Shown in pieces: positions 1,270 to 36,371 of a stretch of 36,714 nt of DNA (positions are counted from its first letter, which is position 1; each line of letters opens with the position of its first letter). The DNA is from a virus. Taxonomy: Duplodnaviria; Heunggongvirae; Uroviricota; Caudoviricetes. The position numbers and the translations under genes are program-made. The notes under the pieces were generated by a model. The model was not told the origin of the DNA. It did not search any database and worked only from the letters and a program-made list of their open reading frames with translations. The DNA is taken from IMG/VR virus record IMGVR_UViG_2547132418_000017; one strand, given 5' to 3'.

Positions 1270-3312
1270 ATGTGGATTACAGCAAAAGAGTGTGCTGGCA
1301 TTGGAGGGCTACCAACACGTGAACACAATGTCAGAGCACGTCTAGATCGTGTAATTGAGAATAAACCTGAATTAAGGCGCAAGCGTGAAGGCACAAAAGC
1401 ATTCGAGTATCACATCGACTGCCTGCCCGCTGAAGCGGAGAAAGTTTTACGTAAGCGCCTGACCCATCAGGTCCTGGAAGATACGCAACTGCCCGCCGTG
1501 GTTGAGCAGAAGGCAGTTAAAAACGTTACCGTTCGCGATGAACTGGAGGTGATGGTCAAATGCCCGGAACTGGCATTACGCGAAGTTCAGGCACTGACTG
1601 ACAAGCAAAAAGCCATCGCAGATGCGCGGATATTGCTGGCTACCGAAGTGCATAAACTGCGTGAATACGCAGGAATGTCCAGGACGGCGGCGATAAAACA
1701 CATCGTTGATGGTATCCGGCAGGAGGCTTTGCCCGAGCGTGTTATTGTGGCAGGTAATACCGCCAATGCCCGACAGGGTAAGCGAACTGGCGTCAGTACA
1801 GGGAGTTTACAGGAATGGTATTCCGCCTGGCTGATGGCGCGCGGTGATGCCAATCAGTTACTGGCGTTACTGGCTCCCGGTCATCATAAGGGGACACCGT
1901 GGGAGCAGGTCTGGTGGTTGAGCGATTTCTTAATGTTCTATCGCTCATGGAAGCGCCCGACCGTTGAATATGCGTATCGCGAGTTTTCAGCCTGGTGGCA
2001 TGAAAAACACGCGAATGATGCGGGAATGCTGGCAGCACTGCCTTCAGTTCATGCAGTAAGACGGGTGTTAAGCAGCGTCCCGGTGATTGTTAAAGAGCGT
2101 TTCCGCTCCACCGGTTCAGCCTGGCGTTCGCTCAATCCCTTTGTGCGGCGCGACTGGACATCATTACCGGTTAATGCGGTATGGGTCGGGGATGGTCACT
2201 GTATGAAAATGACCGCGTTTAACCCCCTGACCGGCAATATTTTCCGGCCAGAAGTAACGCTGGTTATGGATGCGGGACAACGCTTTGTTGTGGGCTGGTC
2301 ACTGTCCCTGTCGGAGAACGTGATAGCCGTTGCTGATGCGTTACGTTACGGCATGGCGCAGCACGGGATACCGCTGGTTTATTACTCCGATAACGGGGGC
2401 GGTGAAAAAAACCGGGTGCTTGATGCCGATATTACCGGGATTCTGCCCCGGCTGGGTGTGGAACATCACACGGGGATACCAGGTAACCCGCAGGGGCGCG
2501 GGGTGATTGAAAGGCTTAATAAGGAAATTCCCCGGGATGTGGCCCTGAGTTTCCAGACGTACTGCTCAAAGGGAGCAGACAAGGAAACCGTAATGATGCA
2601 GCAACGGATTATGCAGTCAGCCATTAAGGCCACCCACAAAGGGAAAGAACTGACAAAACGGCAGGTTAAGGCGAGGGATGAAATCCCCACCTTTGAGCAG
2701 CTGATGGCAGCTATAGAGCTGGAGGTCAGACGCTATAACAACCGACCACACAGCAGCCTTCCCCGCAAAGAGGATGGCGAATATTACAGCCCGGCAGCGT
2801 ATCGCCGGAAACTGATAAAAGAGCAGAATGTTGAAATTGATTTCCTGTCGCCGGAAGAACTGCATGAAATGTTCAGACCGGAAGTGACGCGCAAAACATT
2901 TCGCGGGGAAATTCAGTTATTCAACAATATTTATTACTCGTATGAGCTGGCCGCAGAGCACGGGAATGAAGTCAGGGTCAGTTACGATATTCATGATGCA
3001 AACAGCGTCATTGTCCGGCGGGCTGATGGCTCTTATATCTGCGATGCCATCTGGAACGGTAACAAGGTTGATGCCTTCGCTAAACCAGTTATCGAACAAA
3101 AACTGGAGAAACGCGTCAGAGGCCGCATTGCACGGGCCACGCAGAAAATCGAAGAGGCTAAACGCGAGCTTACCCCGGCTATTACGCAGAAACCTGACTT
3201 TAATTTTGGATTTGGTCTGGAGCGCCCGGAGAAAAAGGATAAAGAAGAACTTTATTTATTTGCATCTGAACGCGAACGCAATTTAAAGAAAAACGGCACA
3301 AACAACCGTTAA
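1270..3312 (+). CDS. Mu-type DDE transposase A, 680 aa
   Basis: Size and position after ner; catalytic-core-like motifs VWVGDGHCM and VYYSDNGGGE. Confidence 0.9.
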   Translation: MWITAKECAGIGGLPTREHNVRARLDRVIENKPELRRKREGTKAFEYHIDCLPAEAEKVLRKRLTHQVLEDTQLPAVVEQKAVKNVTVRDELEVMVKCPELALREVQALTDKQKAIADARILLATEVHKLREYAGMSRTAAIKHIVDGIRQEALPERVIVAGNTANARQGKRTGVSTGSLQEWYSAWLMARGDANQLLALLAPGHHKGTPWEQVWWLSDFLMFYRSWKRPTVEYAYREFSAWWHEKHANDAGMLAALPSVHAVRRVLSSVPVIVKERFRSTGSAWRSLNPFVRRDWTSLPVNAVWVGDGHCMKMTAFNPLTGNIFRPEVTLVMDAGQRFVVGWSLSLSENVIAVADALRYGMAQHGIPLVYYSDNGGGEKNRVLDADITGILPRLGVEHHTGIPGNPQGRGVIERLNKEIPRDVALSFQTYCSKGADKETVMMQQRIMQSAIKATHKGKELTKRQVKARDEIPTFEQLMAAIELEVRRYNNRPHSSLPRKEDGEYYSPAAYRRKLIKEQNVEIDFLSPEELHEMFRPEVTRKTFRGEIQLFNNIYYSYELAAEHGNEVRVSYDIHDANSVIVRRADGSYICDAIWNGNKVDAFAKPVIEQKLEKRVRGRIARATQKIEEAKRELTPAITQKPDFNFGFGLERPEKKDKEELYLFASERERNLKKNGTNNR

Positions 3313-3330
3313 TTTAAAAGGTATTTAATT

Positions 3331-4224
3331 ATGAGTTTAATTACGCAATTAAATGACGTAATGGCCCGTCGCGGCTATACGCAGACCCACGTCGCCCGTG
3401 CTATTGGTCGTAGCAGCGCCGTTATCAACCAGTATTTACAGGGTAAATATCAGGGCGATATGGCTGATATTGAAGAACGCATTTCTGCCTTCGTGACCCG
3501 TGAGCGGGAAAAGGAAAACAGCCGCCGTATTAAAGCAAAGTTTGTGACCACCGGTATGGCTGCCAAAGGACTGGAGGTGCTGGCCTACGCTCACCTGGAA
3601 TGTGAAATCTGTGTGCTGTATGGCGCGGCAGGTCTTGGCAAAACAATGATTCTGCGTGAATACGCCTCCAGAAACCGGGATGCGGTCCTGATTGAGGCTG
3701 ACCCGGGCTATACAGCCAGGACACTGCTTGAGGAGTTGTGCCGCCAGCTGGGGGTAAAGGTTCGCGGCAACATTCACGAACTGATTGATGCCTGTGTGCG
3801 CGAACTGCGTGATTCCGGTCGTCTGCTGATGGTGGACGAGGCTGAACTGCTCCCCTATCGCGCACTGGAGGTTCTGCGCCGTCTGCATGACAAAGCGGGT
3901 ATCGGGGTTGTCCTGGCGGGTATGCCTCGTCTTCTGATTAATCTCAAGGGGCGTCGTGGTGAATTTGCGCAGTTATACAGCCGCGTGGCGCTGGCGCTTA
4001 ACCTGGGCGACATGCTGGCGCAGGAAGATTTTAACCAGATAGCCACCGGGCTGATGCCGGAAGCAGCAGAACGGGAAATCAGCGAGGCGCTTTACGCACG
4101 CTCGCTGGGTAATGCCCGCCGCCTGTTCAAACTGGCGCGTGGTGTGTACCGGATTTGTGATATCAGCGATGCGCCGGTCAGTGTGCAGGCCATTGATAAA
4201 TTCGCAGAAATGTTAATTCACTGA
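3331..4224 (+). CDS. Mu-type transposition ATPase B, 297 aa
   Basis: Walker A GAAGLGKT, Walker B LLMVDEAE, N-terminal HTH-like segment; immediately downstream of transposase A. Confidence 0.9.
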   Translation: MSLITQLNDVMARRGYTQTHVARAIGRSSAVINQYLQGKYQGDMADIEERISAFVTREREKENSRRIKAKFVTTGMAAKGLEVLAYAHLECEICVLYGAAGLGKTMILREYASRNRDAVLIEADPGYTARTLLEELCRQLGVKVRGNIHELIDACVRELRDSGRLLMVDEAELLPYRALEVLRRLHDKAGIGVVLAGMPRLLINLKGRRGEFAQLYSRVALALNLGDMLAQEDFNQIATGLMPEAAEREISEALYARSLGNARRLFKLARGVYRICDISDAPVSVQAIDKFAEMLIH

Positions 4225-4463
4225 TGGAGAACAAGATGATGGACAAGCAGACCATTAACGCCGTCCGTTCCCGTGCCCGTGTGGCCATCCACACCACCGG
4301 CGGTCGCGTAACTGGGCAACATCACCGTTTACCTGTGGTTTATGCCTGCCCGCCCGTGGGCGGCCCTGTATGGCCGGTAACGGAAATCATCCAGACATTC
4401 AGCGGCCTGCGCCGCGTGGTGAAAACGTCCTGTATCGACGGCTGCACCGTCGTATGGCAATAA
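4224..4463 (+). CDS. Hypothetical protein, 79 aa
   Basis: ATG overlaps the transposase B stop (TGATGG), suggesting translational coupling; no recognisable family. Confidence 0.45.
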   Translation: MENKMMDKQTINAVRSRARVAIHTTGGRVTGQHHRLPVVYACPPVGGPVWPVTEIIQTFSGLRRVVKTSCIDGCTVVWQ

Positions 4464-4720: not shown

Positions 4721-5365
4721 ATGACTACTGAAAATAAAGTTAAGCAATACACGAAAACTCAAGCGCCTGAAGGTTACTGGGTGGATGCCCGTGGCGTAAT
4801 GACACCTGAAAGCCTTATCAAAGATATTGACCGCGACCGCGAGCAGCTGGTCGGTGAGCTTGTGGAGATGGTGATTACTGCCTCCGCCTCACTGCGGGAA
4901 CTGAAACTGCGTGCGTTTGGTGATATCCAGGCATTTATTGACCTGTCGGCAGAGAAATACGGTGCTGTGAAAGGCGGCAAAAAAGGGAATATCACGCTTT
5001 ACAGCTTTGACGGGCGTTACAAGATTCAGCGCGCCATGCAGGACCGTATCGCGTTTGATGAACGCATTCAGACCGCGAAGGCGCTGATTGACGACTGTCT
5101 GGCTGACTGGACGGAAGGTGCGCGCCCTGAAATTAAAGCCATCATCAGTGAGGCATTCAGCACGGACAAGGAAGGCAACATCAACACCGGGCGCGTTCTG
5201 GCCCTGCGTCGCCTCGAAATTGAGGACGAACGCTGGAATAACGCCATGTCGCTGATTGGTGAAGCCGTCCAGGTGATTGGCAGCAAGAGCTATATTCGTG
5301 TGTATGAGCGCGTTGGTGATTCTGATGAATACCGCGCAATCCCTCTTGATATTGCAGGGGTTTAA
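4721..5365 (+). CDS. DUF3164-like protein, 214 aa
   Basis: Resembles the DUF3164 family common in Mu-like prophages (recalled, not searched); sits where Mu carries gam. Confidence 0.6.
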   Translation: MTTENKVKQYTKTQAPEGYWVDARGVMTPESLIKDIDRDREQLVGELVEMVITASASLRELKLRAFGDIQAFIDLSAEKYGAVKGGKKGNITLYSFDGRYKIQRAMQDRIAFDERIQTAKALIDDCLADWTEGARPEIKAIISEAFSTDKEGNINTGRVLALRRLEIEDERWNNAMSLIGEAVQVIGSKSYIRVYERVGDSDEYRAIPLDIAGV

Positions 5366-5366
5366 T

Positions 5367-5600
5367 ATGCATCAGAATATCAAAGAGTACAGAGCCGGAA
5401 ATAGTTGCGCGGCGTATTCGCTGGGCGCGTCCAGAGCAGAACAACGCGGCGATTATGACGAGGCAGAAAAACTGTGGCGCAAGGCAGCGCAAAGCCCGTG
5501 TAGCACCCTGCGCCGCACCTGGGCTGAACATCGTGCGGAGTTCTGCGCTAACGCTCACCTGAAGGGATGGAGGCCACGCCATGAATGCGAAGAACTTTAA
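5367..5600 (+). CDS. Hypothetical protein, 77 aa
   Basis: ATG at 5367 one nt after the upstream stop, SD AGGGG 5356..5360; the longer form from 5277 overlaps the previous gene and is less likely. Confidence 0.4.
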   Translation: MHQNIKEYRAGNSCAAYSLGASRAEQRGDYDEAEKLWRKAAQSPCSTLRRTWAEHRAEFCANAHLKGWRPRHECEEL

Positions 5601-5772
5601 TAAGTTATATCCGCTTGGTACTCGTTTCATGCACATTGCACATCAGGCGGTGCGTGGTGGGCGGGTGGTAAAAACTGTTGCACCGGCCAGAGATTTTAAA
5701 TGTGGTTGTGTGATTGAAATTAATGTCGAGCCTTATTTCGTAAAAGTCGAAACACTGAAAGCACCGCATTAA
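5581..5772 (+). CDS. Hypothetical protein, 63 aa
   Basis: ORF overlapping the end of the previous gene; followed by the AT-rich spacer and hairpin. Confidence 0.35.
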   Translation: MNAKNFNKLYPLGTRFMHIAHQAVRGGRVVKTVAPARDFKCGCVIEINVEPYFVKVETLKAPH

Positions 5773-5803
5773 TTTAATTTGTTTTTAATTGTTATTTAAA
5801 ACA

Positions 5804-5841
5804 GGCGTAACCCCGCCGGGGCTGGCTTACGCCTGAATCTG
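5804..5841 (+). repeat. Hairpin-plus-RBS cassette, copy 1
   Basis: GGCGTAA (5804..5810) / TTACGCC (5827..5833) stem around a 16-nt GC-rich loop, then TGAATCTG and SD GGAGG; 38 nt identical to 6429..6466. Confidence 0.7.
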
Positions 5842-5853
5842 GAGGATTTGTAT

Positions 5854-6399
5854 ATGAAAGATAAAGTCTGGGATTTTATTGTTGCTCCTGAAGGTTTTGC
5901 CACCCGTTCATCTGAGAAGTTAACCAATGTAACGTTATGGGCATCATCATTGCTGGGCCATCTGGGAGCACCTGCCGATTTTATGTATGTGGTACTTGAT
6001 GCGCAGATTGCCGGAAATGCTGTGGCCAGTAATGGGGCTTATATTCAGGGGGATTTGTTCGCCATGATGGCGAATGACACAGCAGCGCTGTATATCGCCA
6101 CACGGAACATACTGACAAGAATATCCATGCTGTCTGACTGTAAGGATATGGAAGACCTCGCATACATCCTTGAAGATGATTTGCTCACTATTTCAGGTGT
6201 GCAGGAATCCCTCTCGCGTCAGTTGCGGTTTATTGAACTGATGGAGTCATATAAAGATAAGCCTGATTTTTTTCAGATTCGATTCAGCGGGATGGAACTG
6301 CTGGATAAATATTATCCGCTGGATTCGATTGCCCGTGATGTGAAGGCGTTCGTTAAGTCTGTTGGCCGCCATTACTGGAAAGCTGAACGTCGTAGTTAA
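5854..6399 (+). CDS. Hypothetical protein, 181 aa
   Basis: ATG 5854 with SD GGAGG 5841..5845; no recognisable family. Confidence 0.55.
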   Translation: MKDKVWDFIVAPEGFATRSSEKLTNVTLWASSLLGHLGAPADFMYVVLDAQIAGNAVASNGAYIQGDLFAMMANDTAALYIATRNILTRISMLSDCKDMEDLAYILEDDLLTISGVQESLSRQLRFIELMESYKDKPDFFQIRFSGMELLDKYYPLDSIARDVKAFVKSVGRHYWKAERRS

Positions 6400-6428
6400 T
6401 AAGTCTGTTTTTAATTTTATTTGTATAT

Positions 6429-6466
6429 GGCGTAACCCCGCCGGGGCTGGCTTACGCCTGAATCTG
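6429..6466 (+). repeat. Hairpin-plus-RBS cassette, copy 2
   Basis: Identical 38-nt core to 5804..5841, again directly upstream of a start codon (6478). Confidence 0.7.
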
Positions 6467-6477
6467 AGGGATTCATT

Positions 6478-7194
6478 ATGGAAAATAAAAGCAAATACAT
6501 CGCCAAAATTAAAAAGCTGTTACGCCTTGCCAGAGGAACATCAAGCCCGGAAGAAGCCGCTAACGCTATTGCAAAAGCCCAGGCTTATATGCGCCAGCAT
6601 GGCATCAGCGAAAACGACGCTGAATTGTTCGACATTCAGGAAGCTGCCAGCGCGGGTGCGCCGAGTGATGCCAGTACACCGCCGCGTTATATGCACATCC
6701 TGTGTGACCTGGTCTGTAAAGCCTTCGGTGTCGAGTGTTACATCTCCGGCGAATACCGGGCTTCTGGTTCACTCAAACGTTACGTTCGTTTTTATGGTCC
6801 TGACAGCCGCCCGGAAATTGCGGCATATGCGTTTGATGTGCTTTCCCGTCAGATGATGGCAGAGCGCAAGAAATATCAGGATAAACACTGCAAACGTTGC
6901 GGCCCGTCCACGCGGGTGGCCCGTGGCGACCAGTTCTGCGAAGGCTGGGTCTTTGGTGCCCGTGATGTCATTGCGGTGTATGACGTCTCCCCGGAAGAAA
7001 AAAGCCGCCTTGAGCTTTACAGAAAGAACCTGCACAGCACTAAGGGACTGCGCGACGGGGATATGCGCACAGCTAAAGCGTGCCGGGGTGCAGAGTTTGC
7101 CGCTACTGCCGGTTTTATCGCCGGGAAAAACGCCAGACTGCATCAGGGGGTTAATGGTCAGAGCAACAAAACGCTGGCACTGGGGAGGGTGTAA
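6478..7194 (+). CDS. DUF2786-like protein with C-terminal Cys cluster, 238 aa
   Basis: N-terminal KIKKLLRLARGTSSPEEAANAIAKAQAYMRQHGI resembles the DUF2786 family as I recall it; C-terminal HCKRCG...FCEGW. Confidence 0.55.
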   Translation: MENKSKYIAKIKKLLRLARGTSSPEEAANAIAKAQAYMRQHGISENDAELFDIQEAASAGAPSDASTPPRYMHILCDLVCKAFGVECYISGEYRASGSLKRYVRFYGPDSRPEIAAYAFDVLSRQMMAERKKYQDKHCKRCGPSTRVARGDQFCEGWVFGARDVIAVYDVSPEEKSRLELYRKNLHSTKGLRDGDMRTAKACRGAEFAATAGFIAGKNARLHQGVNGQSNKTLALGRV

Positions 7195-9537: not shown

Positions 9538-9564
9538 AACCTTCGCAAACGCGGAGGTTTTTTA
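9538..9564 (+). terminator. Rho-independent terminator
   Basis: Stem CCTTCGC/GCGGAGG (one G-U pair), loop AAAC, then TTTTTTA. Confidence 0.6.
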
Positions 9565-9591
9565 TGGTCTGTACAGGCGATCATGTATGGC

Positions 9592-9597
9592 TATAAT
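9592..9597 (+). promoter_or_regulatory. Perfect -10 hexamer TATAAT with no recognisable -35 (candidate activator-dependent promoter)
   Basis: TATAAT 30 bp upstream of the Mor-like ATG; sequence 17-18 bp upstream (CTGTAC) is a poor -35. Confidence 0.4.
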
Positions 9598-9626: not shown

Positions 9627-10094
9627 ATGCAGACCTTCAGTGAAACAGATCTTCGCGATGCACAGGCACTGCTACCCGATTCCGTACAGCAACTGATTAG
9701 CGTGATTGGCTTCCCCGCCCTGACCCGGTTGATTTGTTCTTTTGGTGGTGTGACGTTAAGTGGTAAAACCGGCGCACACGCCGAACGCACCGGCGGTGTC
9801 CATGCCCTGTTACATGACGTGCTGACCGAAGACGAAATCAACAAACTGATCCGCTTTCTTGGCGGTGCACCGTTTTACATTCCCCGTTGCGATCATGCGT
9901 TACGTGCCCTGCGTAACACCCGTTTTATGGCTGATTTACAGCAGCATGTAAAAGGCGGATGCTCACACCGGCAGGCGCTGGCACTGCTCTGTCCCCGTTA
10001 CGGCATTTCAGACCGGTACGCATGGCAGCTGATACACCGACGACAAAAACAGACTTCGCTGAAAAGCCCCACCCAGGTGGGGCTTTTTGATTAA
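9627..10094 (+). CDS. mor: Mor/C-family transcriptional activator, 155 aa
   Basis: FYIPRCDHALRALRNTRF and C-terminal HTH-like RYGISDRYAWQLI resemble Mu Mor/C; located before the lysis and late genes. Confidence 0.75.
   Translation: MQTFSETDLRDAQALLPDSVQQLISVIGFPALTRLICSFGGVTLSGKTGAHAERTGGVHALLHDVLTEDEINKLIRFLGGAPFYIPRCDHALRALRNTRFMADLQQHVKGGCSHRQALALLCPRYGISDRYAWQLIHRRQKQTSLKSPTQVGLFD
10065..10089 (+). terminator. Rho-independent terminator overlapping the 3' end of the Mor-like gene
   Basis: AGCCCCACC / GGTGGGGCT stem followed by TTTTT; lies within the last codons of the ORF. Confidence 0.65.
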
Positions 10095-20345: not shown

Positions 20346-20687
20346 ATGGAAAAGGTGATTGAAATTACCCCCCGCCGTGAGGGGTTTCGCCGCTGCGGTG
20401 TGGCACACAGCGCAACCACGAAGGAATGGCCTGCGGATGCGTTCACCCCGGAACAGCTGGCGGTGCTGAAGGCTGACCCCATGCTGATTGTGGTGGAGCG
20501 CGATAAAGCGTCCGGCCAGAACGACGCGGCCCGGGGTGATGAGCTGGCCGCACAGCTGGATGCCGAGCGTCAGAAAGTCAGCGAACTGACGGCGCAACTG
20601 GAAGAAGAACGCCAGAAAGTCAGTGAACTGACCGCACAGCTGAACGCCGCACAGAAAACACAAAAAGCGGACAAAAAGGAGAAGTAA
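20346..20687 (+). CDS. Mu gp35-position protein with internal tandem repeat, 113 aa
   Basis: Position after major head gene; contains RQKVSELTAQL twice (42-bp tandem DNA repeat 20568..20651). Confidence 0.45.
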   Translation: MEKVIEITPRREGFRRCGVAHSATTKEWPADAFTPEQLAVLKADPMLIVVERDKASGQNDAARGDELAAQLDAERQKVSELTAQLEEERQKVSELTAQLNAAQKTQKADKKEK

Positions 20688-29138: not shown

Positions 29139-29788
29139 TGTGGGACAAGGTTAATCAGCGCGTACAGCAGGCACTGGCCGCCGTTCGCCAGGCATTCAGG
29201 GTGGTGACCGGTACGGTGGATAGTTCGACCAAAGTACAGCTACTTCAGCTGAGCGGGCTGGCAGGCGAACAGCTGGACGGTGCGGAGTATTTTCAGCATT
29301 ACGGCCTCACCACATCCCCGCCGCCCGGCTCAATGGGTATTGCCGTTCCGCTGAACGGTAATACCTCCCATACCGTCGTCGTGGCCACCGAGCACGGCGC
29401 ATATCGCCTGACGGAACTGAAACCCGGCGAGGTGGCCCTGTATACCGACGAAGGCGCGAAAATTGTGCTGAAGCGCGGACGGGTTATTGAGCATGAATGT
29501 GATATTTTTCGCGTGAAATGCAAACGCTATGAGGTTGAGGCAGAGGAAAGCGCCGCATTCACGACACCGTTACTGACGGCCTGCGATAAGCTGACGGTGG
29601 AAGGTAAAATCACCGGCAACGGTGGCATGGCCATCAGTGGGGGCAAGAAATACGCCGCCACCTTTGAAGGCAACATCAACCATGTGGGTGGTGTGATTAC
29701 CTCCGTTGACGTCACCATTAATGGCGTTAAAATCGGAACGCACAAACACCCGACCCCACACGGCATGTCTGACACGCCGGTTAATTAA
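29135..29788 (+). CDS. Baseplate spike protein (gpV-like, Mu gp45 position), 217 aa
   Basis: Resembles P2 gpV-type baseplate spike proteins as recalled. Confidence 0.65.
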   Translation: MMWDKVNQRVQQALAAVRQAFRVVTGTVDSSTKVQLLQLSGLAGEQLDGAEYFQHYGLTTSPPPGSMGIAVPLNGNTSHTVVVATEHGAYRLTELKPGEVALYTDEGAKIVLKRGRVIEHECDIFRVKCKRYEVEAEESAAFTTPLLTACDKLTVEGKITGNGGMAISGGKKYAATFEGNINHVGGVITSVDVTINGVKIGTHKHPTPHGMSDTPVN

Positions 29789-33236: not shown

Positions 33237-36200
33237 ATGTCTGTATTAATTTCAGGTGCGCTGATTAATGGCGCTGGCGTTCCGATGGCGGAATGCAAAA
33301 TTTATTTAGATGCACTGGTTAATACCAGTGAAGTGGTTATTGAATCATTTGCGGTTATTGAAACCGATGCGGCGGGACAGTATGCCTTTGAAGCACAAAA
33401 AGGCAAATACACCGTACACATCAAGCAAAAGAACGGCCCTAAGTGCTGTGTGGGTGACATTTCGGTTTACGAAGATTCAAAGCCCGGCACGCTGAACGAC
33501 TTTCTGACTGCCCTTGATGAAGGCGATTTAAAGCCGGATGTAGTGAAACGCTTTGAGGAAATGGTGGCGCAGGCGCAGCAGAGCGCGGAAGCGGCAGCGA
33601 AAAGCGAACAACTGGCCGGGCAACACGTCGCTGATGCGCAGAAGATAAAGGCAGACTGTCAGACGCTGGCGGATAACGTAGCGCAGAACGCAGAAGACGT
33701 TGCTGAAGACAAAAAGCAGGTGGCGCTGCTGGCATCATCTGCCACACAGGATGCGGCCCGCGCAGAGCAGGCGGTCAAAGATGCCGACACGATAGTCCAG
33801 AAAGCGGTCGATAAACTCGGTGAAGCCGCAACGCTGAGCGGCGAGGCAAAGGCCAGTGCAGAAGCGGCAGCAAAAAGCGAGCAGGGCGCAAAACAGCACA
33901 GGGACGAGGCGCAACGGATAGTTGATGACCTGAAGGGAAGCAGTGCTTCCACGACAGAAAAAGGCCTGGTGCAACTCTGTAGTGATACGGACAACGACAG
34001 CGAAGAACTGGCAGCCACACCGAAGGCCGTCAAAACCGTCATGGACGAGACGAAAACAAAAGCGCCGCTGGACAGCCCGGCATTCACCGGCACGCCCACC
34101 ACACCAACCCCACCGGACGATGCTGCCGGTCTGGAAACAGCGAACGCGGCATTTGTCCGCAAACTGCTCGCTGCACTGGTTGACTCGTCACCGGAGGCCC
34201 TGGACACGCTGAACGAGCTGGCAGCGGCGCTGGGAAATGACCCGAATTTTGCGACGACAGTCACCAAAGCACTGGCAGGTAAACAGCCACTCAGTGACGT
34301 GTTAACCGCAATCAGTAATCTGGAAGAACGGGCAGATAATCTTCTGTGCTTTAATCAGGACGGAAATGCTTCACTGTCTCCACTGTCAGAAAAAGCCCGG
34401 TCACTGCTGGCACAGGCCACAGTGGAAGCTATGCGCAATGAGCTTGAGCTGAAAAGCGCAGCGGTAATGGATATTCAGACAGACATTCACGACAGCACGA
34501 AAGGCCGCATTGCGCTTCCCGGTGCGTATGGTTACGGAATGACGGACGCCGGAGCGCGTTCAATTATTGCCAGCGATATGGCGACTGTAGCCAGAACCGC
34601 TCACAACCTGCACCCGGGACGCTATTACACCTTTGCCACACGAACGGAAGAAACAACCGGGATAACAGAAATTATCTGGCTGGATAATGGCCGGGCCGAC
34701 AAAACCAGCCAGACAGCAACAAAGCTGGTTCTGTTTTTTGGAAAAGACGGACGGATTCTTATGACCGTTCGTGGCGATAATATCTCCGCCCCGGTCACCT
34801 GGACGAATCTGACGCCACAACTTGGCAATGCAGCACAGAAGGATGCGCAGGAGAATATTTACGACCGCACCGAAGGCCGTCTGGCGATTCCCGGCATGTT
34901 TGGATTCGGGAAAGTATTTTTCATCGGCGACAGGACCGAGTTTAAAACAGAGGCCGATTTTCTCCGCTGGGTAAAAACGGCAAATCCCGGACGCTATGCC
35001 GTTTATGCAGATACAAATGCGGTAATACAGGGCGTGCTGTTCAAGGGTACCGTTGAAATTATCTGGCCGGAACCTCAAATCAGCCATGATACGGCATATG
35101 TGGCCAAAATCATTATTTTTTACGGTATTAACGGCCATATTTATTACAATCGCTACTGGACTACCGGAGATGGTTATCTGGTTGGCTGGGAAAACCTGAA
35201 GGTTGATGAGGCTTCACTCCGGGCACTGATTGAAACCCGCGCGCCACTGAACAGCCCGGCACTGACCGGAACGCCGTCCACGCCAACACCACAGGATGAT
35301 GCAGCAGGCACTGAAATAGCCAATGCGGCGTTTGTCCGCAAACTGCTCGCCACGCTGGTTGGCTCATCACCGGAAGCCCTGGACACGCTGAACGAGCTGG
35401 CAGCGGCACTGGGCAATGACCCGAACTTTGCGACAACCGTCACTAATGCACTGGCAGGTAAACAGCCGCTTAATGACGTGTTAACGGCTGTCAGCAAGAT
35501 AACACCGGAAGAAAACACACTGCCCTATTTCAGTGCAGATGGCAGGATTTTACTGGCGCAGTTGTCAGAAAAAGCCCGCGCATTACTGGCACTGGACACA
35601 CCTGAAGCCATGCGCACGGAGCTTGAACTGAAAGCGGCTGCGACGATGGAACCCCAGAGCGATATCCGTGACCGCACACCGGGCAGACTGGCGCTGTCCG
35701 GCATGCATGGCTTTGGTCAGGCATTCAGCAGTGCCGACGCTCTGACATTTAACGGGCAGGCCGATTTTGTTGAATGGCTGAAAAAGGCCGCCCCGGGGCG
35801 TTATGCGGTCAGTATTGCGGACTCTTCCATGCTGCTGGTTGGCACCAAGAAATTTAACGGCACCATTGATGTGATGTGGTCGCCCTTTGATAACGATGAG
35901 TCGGACACAATACGAAAATTCAAAACACTGCTGTGTTTTAACCAGTATTACGAAGGTGAGCATAGTATTCATTTCCTGACTTACCGCTTTAGTGGAAACA
36001 ACTGGAATGCAACAGTAAGCCCTGTCATTTACGACGGCGATTCGCTGGCGTTCTTACTGTCCCGGACAGCAGGCTCAGGCTCATATTTCAAATACCCGGC
36101 AGTGGGTGTTCCAGTGCTGGCTGTTTATCGCGGAACAACTTTCGGGGATAAAGAAATCAATATTGGCCTGGGTGATGTGGTGCAGGGGTCACAACTGGGC

Positions 36201-36371
36201 GGAGTTAATCTTTCGTGCTTAATATCTTCTGCTGGGGTTGGCTCCTACAATTCCGCACCGAGTGCAGGAGCTACAGGGTACACTTTCCCGGGGCGTTATA
36301 TGGCGCTATCCGGGGTCAGGGACTCTAAAGGAATAACCGGTCGTATCTGCCTGTTTGTGCGCATCGAGTAA
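33237..36371 (+). CDS. Large side-tail-fibre-like protein with internally duplicated Stf-like module, 1044 aa
   Basis: Two copies of ...SPA(F/L)TGTP(T/S)TPTP.DDAAG.E.ANAAFVRKLLA...SPEALDTLNELAAALGNDPNFATTVT.ALAGKQP..., resembling the conserved region of lambda Stf; N-terminal Ala/Lys-rich region. Confidence 0.85.
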   Translation: MSVLISGALINGAGVPMAECKIYLDALVNTSEVVIESFAVIETDAAGQYAFEAQKGKYTVHIKQKNGPKCCVGDISVYEDSKPGTLNDFLTALDEGDLKPDVVKRFEEMVAQAQQSAEAAAKSEQLAGQHVADAQKIKADCQTLADNVAQNAEDVAEDKKQVALLASSATQDAARAEQAVKDADTIVQKAVDKLGEAATLSGEAKASAEAAAKSEQGAKQHRDEAQRIVDDLKGSSASTTEKGLVQLCSDTDNDSEELAATPKAVKTVMDETKTKAPLDSPAFTGTPTTPTPPDDAAGLETANAAFVRKLLAALVDSSPEALDTLNELAAALGNDPNFATTVTKALAGKQPLSDVLTAISNLEERADNLLCFNQDGNASLSPLSEKARSLLAQATVEAMRNELELKSAAVMDIQTDIHDSTKGRIALPGAYGYGMTDAGARSIIASDMATVARTAHNLHPGRYYTFATRTEETTGITEIIWLDNGRADKTSQTATKLVLFFGKDGRILMTVRGDNISAPVTWTNLTPQLGNAAQKDAQENIYDRTEGRLAIPGMFGFGKVFFIGDRTEFKTEADFLRWVKTANPGRYAVYADTNAVIQGVLFKGTVEIIWPEPQISHDTAYVAKIIIFYGINGHIYYNRYWTTGDGYLVGWENLKVDEASLRALIETRAPLNSPALTGTPSTPTPQDDAAGTEIANAAFVRKLLATLVGSSPEALDTLNELAAALGNDPNFATTVTNALAGKQPLNDVLTAVSKITPEENTLPYFSADGRILLAQLSEKARALLALDTPEAMRTELELKAAATMEPQSDIRDRTPGRLALSGMHGFGQAFSSADALTFNGQADFVEWLKKAAPGRYAVSIADSSMLLVGTKKFNGTIDVMWSPFDNDESDTIRKFKTLLCFNQYYEGEHSIHFLTYRFSGNNWNATVSPVIYDGDSLAFLLSRTAGSGSYFKYPAVGVPVLAVYRGTTFGDKEINIGLGDVVQGSQLGGVNLSCLISSAGVGSYNSAPSAGATGYTFPGRYMALSGVRDSKGITGRICLFVRIE

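Follow-up and report, generated by a model that had tools for sequence, protein, structure and literature searches.

The window analysed here, a 36,714-nucleotide (nt) stretch of DNA held as IMG/VR virus record IMGVR_UViG_2547132418_000017, is a complete Mu-type transposable prophage, and its early region raises a simple question: why does one short intergenic sequence stand, letter for letter, in front of two adjacent genes? The 38-mer GGCGTAACCCCGCCGGGGCTGGCTTACGCCTGAATCTG occurs exactly twice, on the plus strand at 5804-5841 and 6429-6466, and each copy precedes the ribosome-binding site of the next gene, with start codons at ATG 5854 and ATG 6478 (for the first of these genes the listing of open reading frames, ORFs, gives TTG 5848, and relatives are annotated from the ATG). 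A preliminary description of the window proposed a functional RNA element or a linker that mediates gene-cassette exchange. We compared the repeat and its spacer, together termed E, between the window and its relatives. At the level of sequence, the results show E to be a structured cassette between cistrons, strongly constrained and fixed in position, at the entrance to the accessory slot of enterobacterial Mu-type phages. Both proposals gained support: the functional-RNA one from compensatory changes in the stem, conservation above that of the flanking genes and a strand-asymmetry test, and the linker one from presence/absence differences among close relatives whose joints lie in the hairpin.

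Architecture of the element and selection on its hairpin

E is laid out as a stop codon, an A/T-rich tract of about 30 nt, a GC-rich hairpin of 30 nt, a Shine-Dalgarno (SD) block 6-8 nt past the hairpin, and a start codon mostly 16-22 nt past the hairpin. Both copies lie on the plus strand. The A/T-rich spacer of copy 1 (5773-5803) holds three phased TTTAA blocks (5773, 5784 and 5796), with a column conservation of 0.8-0.9 at the TTTAA(A) blocks. Its hairpin (5804-5833) comprises an outer stem (5804-5810/5827-5833), a G/C-rich interior, a short GC/GC inner helix and a CGGG loop, and is followed at 5834-5853 by TGAATC and the SD sequence GGAGG (5841-5845), up to the next start codon. In copy 2, the last block of the A/T-rich spacer (6400-6428) is degenerate (TTTGTATAT), the hairpin (6429-6458; stem 6429-6435/6452-6458) is identical to that of copy 1, including a private C at hairpin position 8, and the post-hairpin segment (6459-6477) carries TGAATC and the SD sequence GAGGG (6466-6470). 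Across copies, the A at +3 of the TGAATC block is invariant and the T at +5 is kept in at least 90%.

The preliminary description had called the two spacers otherwise unrelated, which proved wrong: 5783-5848 and 6408-6473 are 85% identical over 66 nt, and when aligned from stop codon to start codon the spacers are homologous units of ~79 nt each. Its structural claims were borne out. The motif TGTTTTTAATT lies in the A/T-rich stretch upstream of each copy (5780-5790 and 6406-6416), the 7-base-pair (bp) stem GGCGTAA/TTACGCC folds as proposed (-15.1 kcal/mol for the 38-mer), and no U-tract follows the hairpin on the plus strand, where 76 of 84 variants have 2-3 U within the 8 nt past the hairpin. 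With up to three mismatches allowed, the 38-mer had no further match in the window and none in 100 shuffles. A covariance model derived from the relatives likewise matched the window only at the two copies (69.7 and 68.1 bits; next plus-strand match at an E-value of 0.79). Rfam gave no match at the gathering score, either on the window or on the P2-type loci described below, and at a permissive threshold all its matches were at chance level (best E-value 0.17; best over the hairpin 0.24). A simple promoter and terminator scan made no call at either copy of E, with a terminator loop limit of 3-8 nt that would miss this hairpin.

The conservation of the hairpin exceeded that of the genes around it. 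Across 58 distant loci, whose flanking proteins are ~40-55% identical, mean nucleotide identity to the window was 63% for the p63 gene, 70% for the DUF3164 gene and 88% for the hairpin. Pairing was assessed on 41 unique hairpins, aligned without redundancy and drawn from all lineages, with partners slid by 1-3 columns, shuffles, and a strand test on folding free-energy change (ddG) as controls. RNAalifold recovered the hairpin, and standard pairs filled 93.5% of cells, compared to 23-42% with slid partners. Cells in which both partners had changed numbered 26, against 6.8 ± 2.1 in shuffles (0/500 reached 26). Four positions showed full compensation (UA to CG nine times, AU to GC five times, AU to GC twice and GC to UA eight times), yielding stems such as GGCGTGA/TCACGCC in Pantoea, GGCGCGA/TCGCGCC in Mu, D108 and SfMu, GGCGCG/CGCGCC in Erwinia tracheiphila, and GGCGCAG/CTGCGCC in a variant termed E'. 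Within the hairpin, good support is confined to the 7-bp outer stem and a 2-3-bp apical helix that closes an NGGR loop; Mu-lineage variants favour the GC/GC inner helix, equivalent to GUC/GAC. These results show strong purifying selection on the predicted hairpin, with pairing maintained through compensatory changes. Hairpin variants also sort by phage lineage (Photorhabdus, Xenorhabdus, Pantoea/Mixta, Yersinia and Mu types), a pattern that points to vertical descent under selection and against rampant homogenisation.

The strand on which the hairpin is maintained was addressed with natural variants derived through protein-anchored loci and the covariance model. Outer-stem wobbles in L028 and L121 (TTACGUC) and in L130 (GGUGUAA) pair on the plus strand only. 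By ddG, 24 of 33 natural variants favoured the plus strand and 7 the minus strand; plus-strand energy stayed near the consensus, and minus-strand energy swung from -4.3 to +11 kcal/mol. The strand test thus favours a hairpin acting as mRNA-sense RNA.

Two smaller features of the element were also seen. A minimal ORF, ATG-GCG-TAA (Met-Ala-stop), overlaps the 5' arm of the hairpin in the window at 6426-6434, in most E copies and in P2-type cassettes; it is probably incidental, since window copy 1 (ACAGGCGTAA) and a few P2-type variants (AAAGGCGTAA) lack it. In copy 2, a GAAUC-UGAGG-GAUUC mini-hairpin with the SD in its loop is possible at 6459-6475; its pairing is weaker in copy 1 and unconserved in relatives.

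Gene shuffling at the accessory slot

The preliminary description had raised the idea that the repeat always flanks variable cargo, and in related prophages E indeed stands always at the entrance of a hypervariable slot. In the window, copy 1 follows p63 (5581-5772, plus strand, stop TAA 5770-5772; 63 amino acids (aa), phrog_5591), a conserved early gene and the last one before the slot. Between the copies lies p181 (5854-6399, plus strand; 181 aa, phrog_7741), an inserted cargo gene and Escherichia coli-restricted ORFan that many close relatives lack. Copy 2 precedes a DUF2786/DUF7168 gene (6478-7194, plus strand), which comes directly after a single E in relatives without cargo. Among the relatives, the ORF ending 25-45 nt before E fell into a p63-dominated single-linkage cluster for 98 of 114 copies, a cluster that also took in 17 ORFs from downstream of E, and the gene after E fell into at least 15 unrelated clusters. 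One copy of E was present at 91 of 101 loci, two copies at 7 and three at 3. Because p63 lies upstream, at least 15 clusters lie downstream and 91 loci carry a single copy, E marks the border between the conserved early genes and the hypervariable slot, and the single copy is its normal state.

Close relatives differ by whole modules at this border. The simplest arrangement, p63-E-DUF2786, is that of L003, to which L002 adds a 60-aa ORF (p63-E-orf60-DUF2786). The window and L447 share p63-E-p181-E-DUF2786, and L001 has p63-E-p181-E-orf60. L099 carries p63-E-DUF7448-E'-DUF2786, L005 carries p63-E-DUF7448-E'-p181-E-DUF2786, and L004, L088 and L104 have the L005 arrangement plus orf60. Seven of the eight possible combinations of presence and absence of DUF7448, p181 and orf60 were thus seen in the E. 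coli group. Each cargo ORF brings its own 3' hairpin: p181 is always followed by E, and DUF7448 by E', whose hairpin is GGCGCAG-N10-CTGCGCC. Where p181 is missing (L003, L096 and L097), E comes directly before DUF2786. In L003, which has one E, the left flank matches that of window copy 1 and the right flank that of copy 2, and the joints therefore lie within the shared hairpin. The two copies in the window are the footprint of an insertion of the p181 ORF together with its own copy of E.

The copies have also exchanged sequence with one another. Hairpin position 8 is C in the window (GTAACCCC) and A, or rarely T, in all other copies from the fetched loci. This private C is present in both window copies, and both copies in E. 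coli tcmA_3, the closest relative with this architecture (95.8% identical), have A; this is direct evidence that the two window copies exchanged sequence, by gene conversion or recent copying. No identical match to the copy-1 spacer was found among complete E. coli genomes. The exact window 30-mer likewise had zero matches in viral_contigs and genome_contigs, since it carries the private A-to-C variant; the element itself is not unique, and degenerate and anchored searches returned hundreds of E copies.

Three loci of the slot showed further peculiarities. In the 4.1-kilobase (kb) viral contig L089, the p181 module stands twice in tandem (2729-3371) with E before each, which could reflect unequal crossing-over between E copies or an assembly artefact. 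The ORF orf60 (L002, 6081-6263), which numerous E. coli Mu-like prophages have annotated downstream of E, runs antisense over the 3' two-thirds of a leftward 72-aa gene. Only L004 (6214-6432, minus strand) has that gene intact, and in L002 a deletion of ~165 bp has taken its start and promoter; because of this, orf60 may mark a remnant region and not be a real gene. The Mu-like prophage of E. coli RM9088 (L005) carries two copies of the insertion sequence IS1 in its transposase/early region (297-994 and 3070-3767) and is disabled, yet it has kept its E-DUF7448-E'-p181-E array.

Occurrence in Mu-type phages and a P2/186-like relative

The distribution of E sets it apart from host repeats. Sensitive BLAST with the 79-nt spacer found E in 59 of 5,426 complete E. 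coli genomes (~1%), at 1-4 places each, and every inspected context was the early region of a Mu-like prophage. An unanchored search of viral contigs with the hairpin pattern gave 79 loci, and all 76 that were newly fetched carried Mu markers. The preliminary description would have given way had the motif been a host repeat of the repetitive extragenic palindromic (REP) type scattered over the chromosome; E is instead confined to Mu-type prophages, and a repeat of the REP, bacterial interspersed mosaic element or miniature inverted-repeat transposable element type was rejected on this distribution. With the neighbouring DUF3164 protein as the anchor, 160 Mu-like early regions were collected, of which about 105 contained the hairpin, all from Enterobacterales besides one isolate, Pseudomonas phage VW-6B. 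E-bearing genera were Escherichia, Photorhabdus, Xenorhabdus, Yersinia, Serratia, Pantoea, Mixta, Kosakonia, Trabulsiella, Buttiauxella, Lonsdalea, Erwinia and Morganella; among the collected regions, E was absent from the Mu-like phages of Pseudomonas, Neisseriaceae, Burkholderiales and others. The E of VW-6B (L168, MF975721, 5118-5163), a phage reported on Pseudomonas fluorescens, is of the type found in Serratia sp. PL17 (L029), with one hairpin nucleotide of difference and a p63 that is 85% identical. Because all other Pseudomonas Mu-like phages lack E, the host attribution of VW-6B, or a recent host jump, deserves a look.

Phage Mu itself carries a homologue. The covariance model matched Mu at 6356-6411 (38.8 bits, E-value 2e-8), in the spacer between gam and gp11, with the hairpin at 6368-6397. 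The layout is the same: an A/T-rich tract, the hairpin GGCGCGA-UACGUCAGGAGAUUGC-UCGCGCC, then UGAAAC...GAGGA and ATG. Homologues were also present in D108, SfMu and several gam-type E. coli prophages. Different genes follow gam-E: Mu and D108 have gp11 there, SfMu and some Yersinia phages have a DUF5420 gene, and O157 prophages have yet another ORF, 180 aa long. The boundary rule thus holds in the Mu group too. We found no annotation of E in the Mu records and no description of it in the searchable literature, for which the literal core sequence was also used as a query.

A weak BLAST match led from E to Fels-2, PSP3 and P2-like phages of Klebsiella (in Fels-2 the cassette lies at 2492-2547 of L169 and at 29,723-29,766 of NC_010463). 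The early lytic operon of these P2/186-like phages carries AAUGGCGUAAACCCGCC-GGGCAUUCUUUUGCCC-AAAUUCAGGAG-N7-AUG. Common to the Mu-type E and this P2-type cassette are a 5' core of 19-20 nt (ATGGCGTAAACCCGCCGGG) and the SD block AAATTCAGGAG-N7-ATG, and the P2-type cassette is likewise intergenic and in the same orientation to transcription. It lacks the 3' arm TTACGCC; instead, a pair of short hairpins stand in tandem, the first being GGCG[UAAACC]CGCC and the second a variable GGGCA...UGCCC. Of 105 unique P2-type upstream regions, 102 carry the 18-mer GGCGTAAACCCGCCGGGC without change, although the second hairpin varies. We found the P2-type cassette in more than 120 viral contigs and in 1,348 of 5,426 E. 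coli genomes (25%); none of the 80 contigs newly fetched carried a Mu marker. At 118 of 120 loci the downstream gene belonged to the 186 orf79/DUF2732 family, and the upstream gene varied. The P2-type cassette thus has its conserved gene downstream and its variable gene upstream, and the Mu-type has the reverse. No homology was found between the genes flanking the P2-type cassette and the Mu-like neighbours. Chance cannot account for 31 identical non-coding nt that two unrelated phage families share in one order and one orientation; they point either to inter-family transfer of the cassette or to selection by a common host partner. The literature on Mu-like early regions, on the 186/P2 early operon and on Mu transcriptomics yielded no description of the element, and the P2-type cassette upstream of orf79/DUF2732 is apparently undescribed.

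In the window, both E copies lie inside a long rightward early operon, as established by analysis of the window together with the annotation of relatives. A leftward helix-turn-helix repressor gene (173-850) precedes ner (989-1261), transposase A (1270-3312), the AAA ATPase B gene (3331-4224), kil (4224-4463, phrog_2679), the DUF3164 gene (4721-5365) and an ANR-family gene (5367-5600), after which come p63 and the slot. Mor lies at 9627-10094, with late genes further downstream. Pfam and PADLOC searches returned no match for p63 or p181. The predicted structure of p63 is a generic small beta-barrel only (predicted local distance difference test, pLDDT, 68), and the model of p181 was unusable (pLDDT 46). 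Further features were noted elsewhere in the window. At 9538-9597, just upstream of Mor, a terminator-like hairpin (AACCTTCGCAAACGCGGAGGTT, then TTTTAT) is followed by a promoter-like site, TGTACA-16-TATAAT; the early transcript may end here and mor may have a separate promoter. A 42-nt unit stands three times in tandem and in frame at 20541-20666, within the ORF 20346-20687, giving a repeated 14-residue segment (units two and three are 74% and 62% identical to the first). A 257-nt direct repeat with 84% identity (34062-34318 and 35241-35497) lies within a 1044-aa ORF (33237-36371) that is probably a tail-fibre gene with an internal duplication.

Candidate functions and comparison with known systems

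What could account for both the constraint on the hairpin and the shuffling of genes around it? The explanation we favour, at slightly better than even chances, is that E is a cis-acting determinant of early-mRNA stability or processing combined with a context-independent translation start, and that its conservation makes it a homology patch for the shuffling of accessory genes. Acting in cis on the early polycistronic transcript, the hairpin would work in one or both of two ways: RNase E-type cuts in the A/U tract would give the downstream message a stem-loop at its 5' end, or the hairpin would form a barrier that protects the upstream core-gene mRNA against 3' decay. Hairpin and SD block together would provide a context-independent translation start for any downstream ORF. 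Such a functional patch hardly varies even where phages have otherwise diverged, and it would therefore offer co-resident phages the homology by which to gain, lose and swap accessory ORFs; the exchange would most simply be ordinary homologous recombination at the conserved patch.

Several observations weigh against this explanation. We infer the RNase E, stability and translation roles only from the architecture of the element. The pairing of the hairpin interior is ambiguous, two models each reaching 95.1% on the first alignment, and the loop and unpaired positions are nearly invariant, beyond the need of a generic stability hairpin. The L111-L113 lineage has an A.C at the innermost stem pair that would pair only on the minus strand, and the variants that give the strand test its mean ddG difference of -2.4 kcal/mol (Wilcoxon p=0.001) are phylogenetically non-independent. 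SfMu and the O157 prophages carry an inserted gene with no second E after it; therefore, not every insertion uses E on both sides. On the minus strand, 65 of 84 variants have 4-5 U in the 8 nt past the hairpin (for example AUUUUUAAAA; window copy 1 reads UGUUUUAA, 5/8).

These U-rich tails belong to the first rival explanation, which we consider unlikely: a leftward (minus-strand) intrinsic terminator or insulator that blocks antisense transcription from leftward morons of the slot into the transposition genes and the repressor. It is consistent with the fold of the 91-nt regions, which has z-scores of -3.5 and -3.3 on the minus strand compared to -1.2 and -0.3 on the plus strand, with the greater minus-strand stability of the consensus hairpin (-18.2 versus -13.9 kcal/mol), and with the slot of some relatives, where the leftward 72-aa gene has its 3' end facing E. 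However, natural variants destabilise the minus-strand fold far more (the 24 against 7 above, with ddG up to +11 kcal/mol), and the G.U variants of the outer stem pair on the plus strand only. In second copies, that of the window and all others, the tail is poor (AUAUACAA, 2/8 U) although the hairpin is intact, and most loci have no leftward gene in the slot. A leftward terminator, moreover, needs neither a conserved SD block nor a fixed distance to the start codon. It was also uncalled in the simple scan, but the loop limit given above would have missed the hairpin.

Also improbable is that E is a sequence-specific site recognised by a host factor conserved in enterobacteria, or by a conserved phage protein, on the transcript or on non-template DNA; examples would be a nut/put/ops-like modifier of RNA polymerase, a block to Rho before foreign, poorly translated genes, or the site of a translational regulator. 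The unpaired and loop positions are as nearly invariant as the stem, which hints at a specific binding partner, and an identical 30-mer occurs in phages whose flanking proteins are ~50% identical. The P2/186-like cassette has ATGGCGTAAACCCGCCGGG and AAATTCAGGAG in common with E, and its 18-mer is invariant in 102 of 105 regions despite a differing pairing partner. E is limited to phages of Enterobacterales, the Mu-like phages of Pseudomonas, Neisseriaceae and Burkholderiales having none, and the adjacent p63 models as a small beta-barrel, a fold class that is often nucleic-acid-binding. The protein analyses of p63 and p181 suggested no trans-acting partner and no cargo function. In its narrower form, this explanation would make the invariant core (A)UGGCGUAAACCCGC(C)GGGG the recognition element of a conserved enterobacterial factor, such as a transcription-elongation or anti-polarity factor, an RNase or a translational regulator, placed by Mu-type and P2/186-type phages alike at their accessory gateway; we regard this as something of a long shot. 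If true, it would be a new class of phage cis-regulatory signal, akin to nut, put and ops, that permits newly acquired foreign genes to be expressed.

Could the element instead be a pure DNA-level recombination linker or selfish boundary with no RNA function, kept by viable crossovers or spread by gene conversion? We think this quite improbable. The presence/absence joints inside the hairpin, the concerted change between the window copies, the tandem p181 module in L089 and the core shared with P2-like phages between unrelated genes would all fit such a linker. It offers no reason, however, for compensatory changes, for the wobble asymmetry or for a plus-strand energy held near -14 kcal/mol across lineages. 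The tracking of lineages by hairpin variants again indicates vertical inheritance and not rampant homogenisation, and at the 91 of 101 loci with a single copy there is usually no partner in cis.

The weakest rival, which we hold to be very improbable, is a cassette of the promoter early stem-loop (PeSL) type or a classical moron, in which the A/T tract would be an independent promoter for the cargo, for example in the lysogen, and the hairpin a 5' leader or terminator: the architecture matches the PeSL description (PMC2839356) and the phased A/T blocks could introduce a DNA bend of the kind found in UP-like regions, but the best sigma-70 match in or before the hairpin reaches at most 8/12 in 83 of 84 variants at an unconserved position, no promoter or terminator was called at the window copies, and the plus strand has no U-tract.

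A plain promoter was rejected on hexamer scores, and a plus-strand intrinsic terminator on the missing U-tract and the lack of a scan call. Resemblances by eye to ops, boxA and a segment of 16S rRNA were dropped as too weak.

How phages come by accessory genes (morons, ORFans, anti-defence genes) and exchange them is a question of long standing. E offers annotators a structured landmark of ~80 nt for locating the accessory slots of Mu-like phages. With an unannotated homologue in Mu, both the effect on the early transcript and the exchange of cassettes become testable in a classical genetic system. An element that is unannotated in a model phage, supported by covariation and common to phage families makes phage mosaicism experimentally tractable.

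Among known systems, the nearest in presumed mode of action are the intercistronic stability elements of bacteria and phages, such as the REP hairpins of malE-malF, RNase E processing in papBA, the 5' stem-loops of ompA and the RNase III sites of T7. E resembles them in having a stable hairpin in a polycistronic spacer with A/U-rich single-stranded flanks, and theirs is the mechanism that we propose for E. REP elements are host repeats in hundreds of copies, whereas E is phage-specific and positional, and a classical RNase III site would need a longer stem than the 7 bp plus 2-3 bp of E. The serial modules of ORF plus hairpin at one slot, with structure conserved beyond the expectation for a spacer, recall the attC sites of integrons. 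However, the core sites RYYYAAC/GTTRRRY are absent from E, whose arms by direct reading are GGCGTAA(A/C)/TTACGCC, and attC sites are 57-141 nt long and cassette-specific, whereas E is 30 nt and near-invariant. An attC identity was rejected on the core sites. An integron integrase was absent from the annotation of the inspected Mu-like regions, in which no search was aimed at one.

Lambdoid morons and module-boundary linkers are reportedly treated in work by Susskind and Botstein in 1978, Juhala and Hendrix in 2000 and Clark et al. in 2001, and we know of no report of structure or covariation for the lambdoid boundary sequences. The likeness to E lies in the extra gene between genes that are adjacent in relatives and in short conserved intergenic sequences as proposed exchange sites. 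A moron has its own promoter and a factor-independent terminator, whereas p181 has neither and is embedded in the early operon. Morons have been summarised elsewhere, and the same source states that in Pseudomonas Mu-like phages common sequences flanking the variable regions were sought and not found (PMC4378225).

The closest overall parallel is with the PeSL cassettes of T4-type phages (Arbiol et al. 2010, PMC2839356; Comeau et al. 2014, PMC4122927). Like these, E has a stop codon in an A/T-rich tract, a stem-loop with G/C runs, an SD sequence and a start codon; it lies beside ORFans in hyperplastic regions, the cassette forms the limits of insertions, deletions and replacements that separate close relatives, and its copies recombine. 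The two differ in that a PeSL is defined by a consensus sigma-70 early promoter and its stem-loop terminates, whereas E has no consistent promoter and no U-tract. PeSLs number ~50 per genome and are variable in sequence, whereas E is present in 1-3 copies at one fixed position and is nearly invariant; PeSLs belong to virulent T4-like phages, and E belongs to temperate phages of the Mu and P2 types. Because it lacks the promoter and the copy number of a PeSL and occurs in temperate phages, E is not one of them; by analogy, it appears to work like a PeSL without being one.

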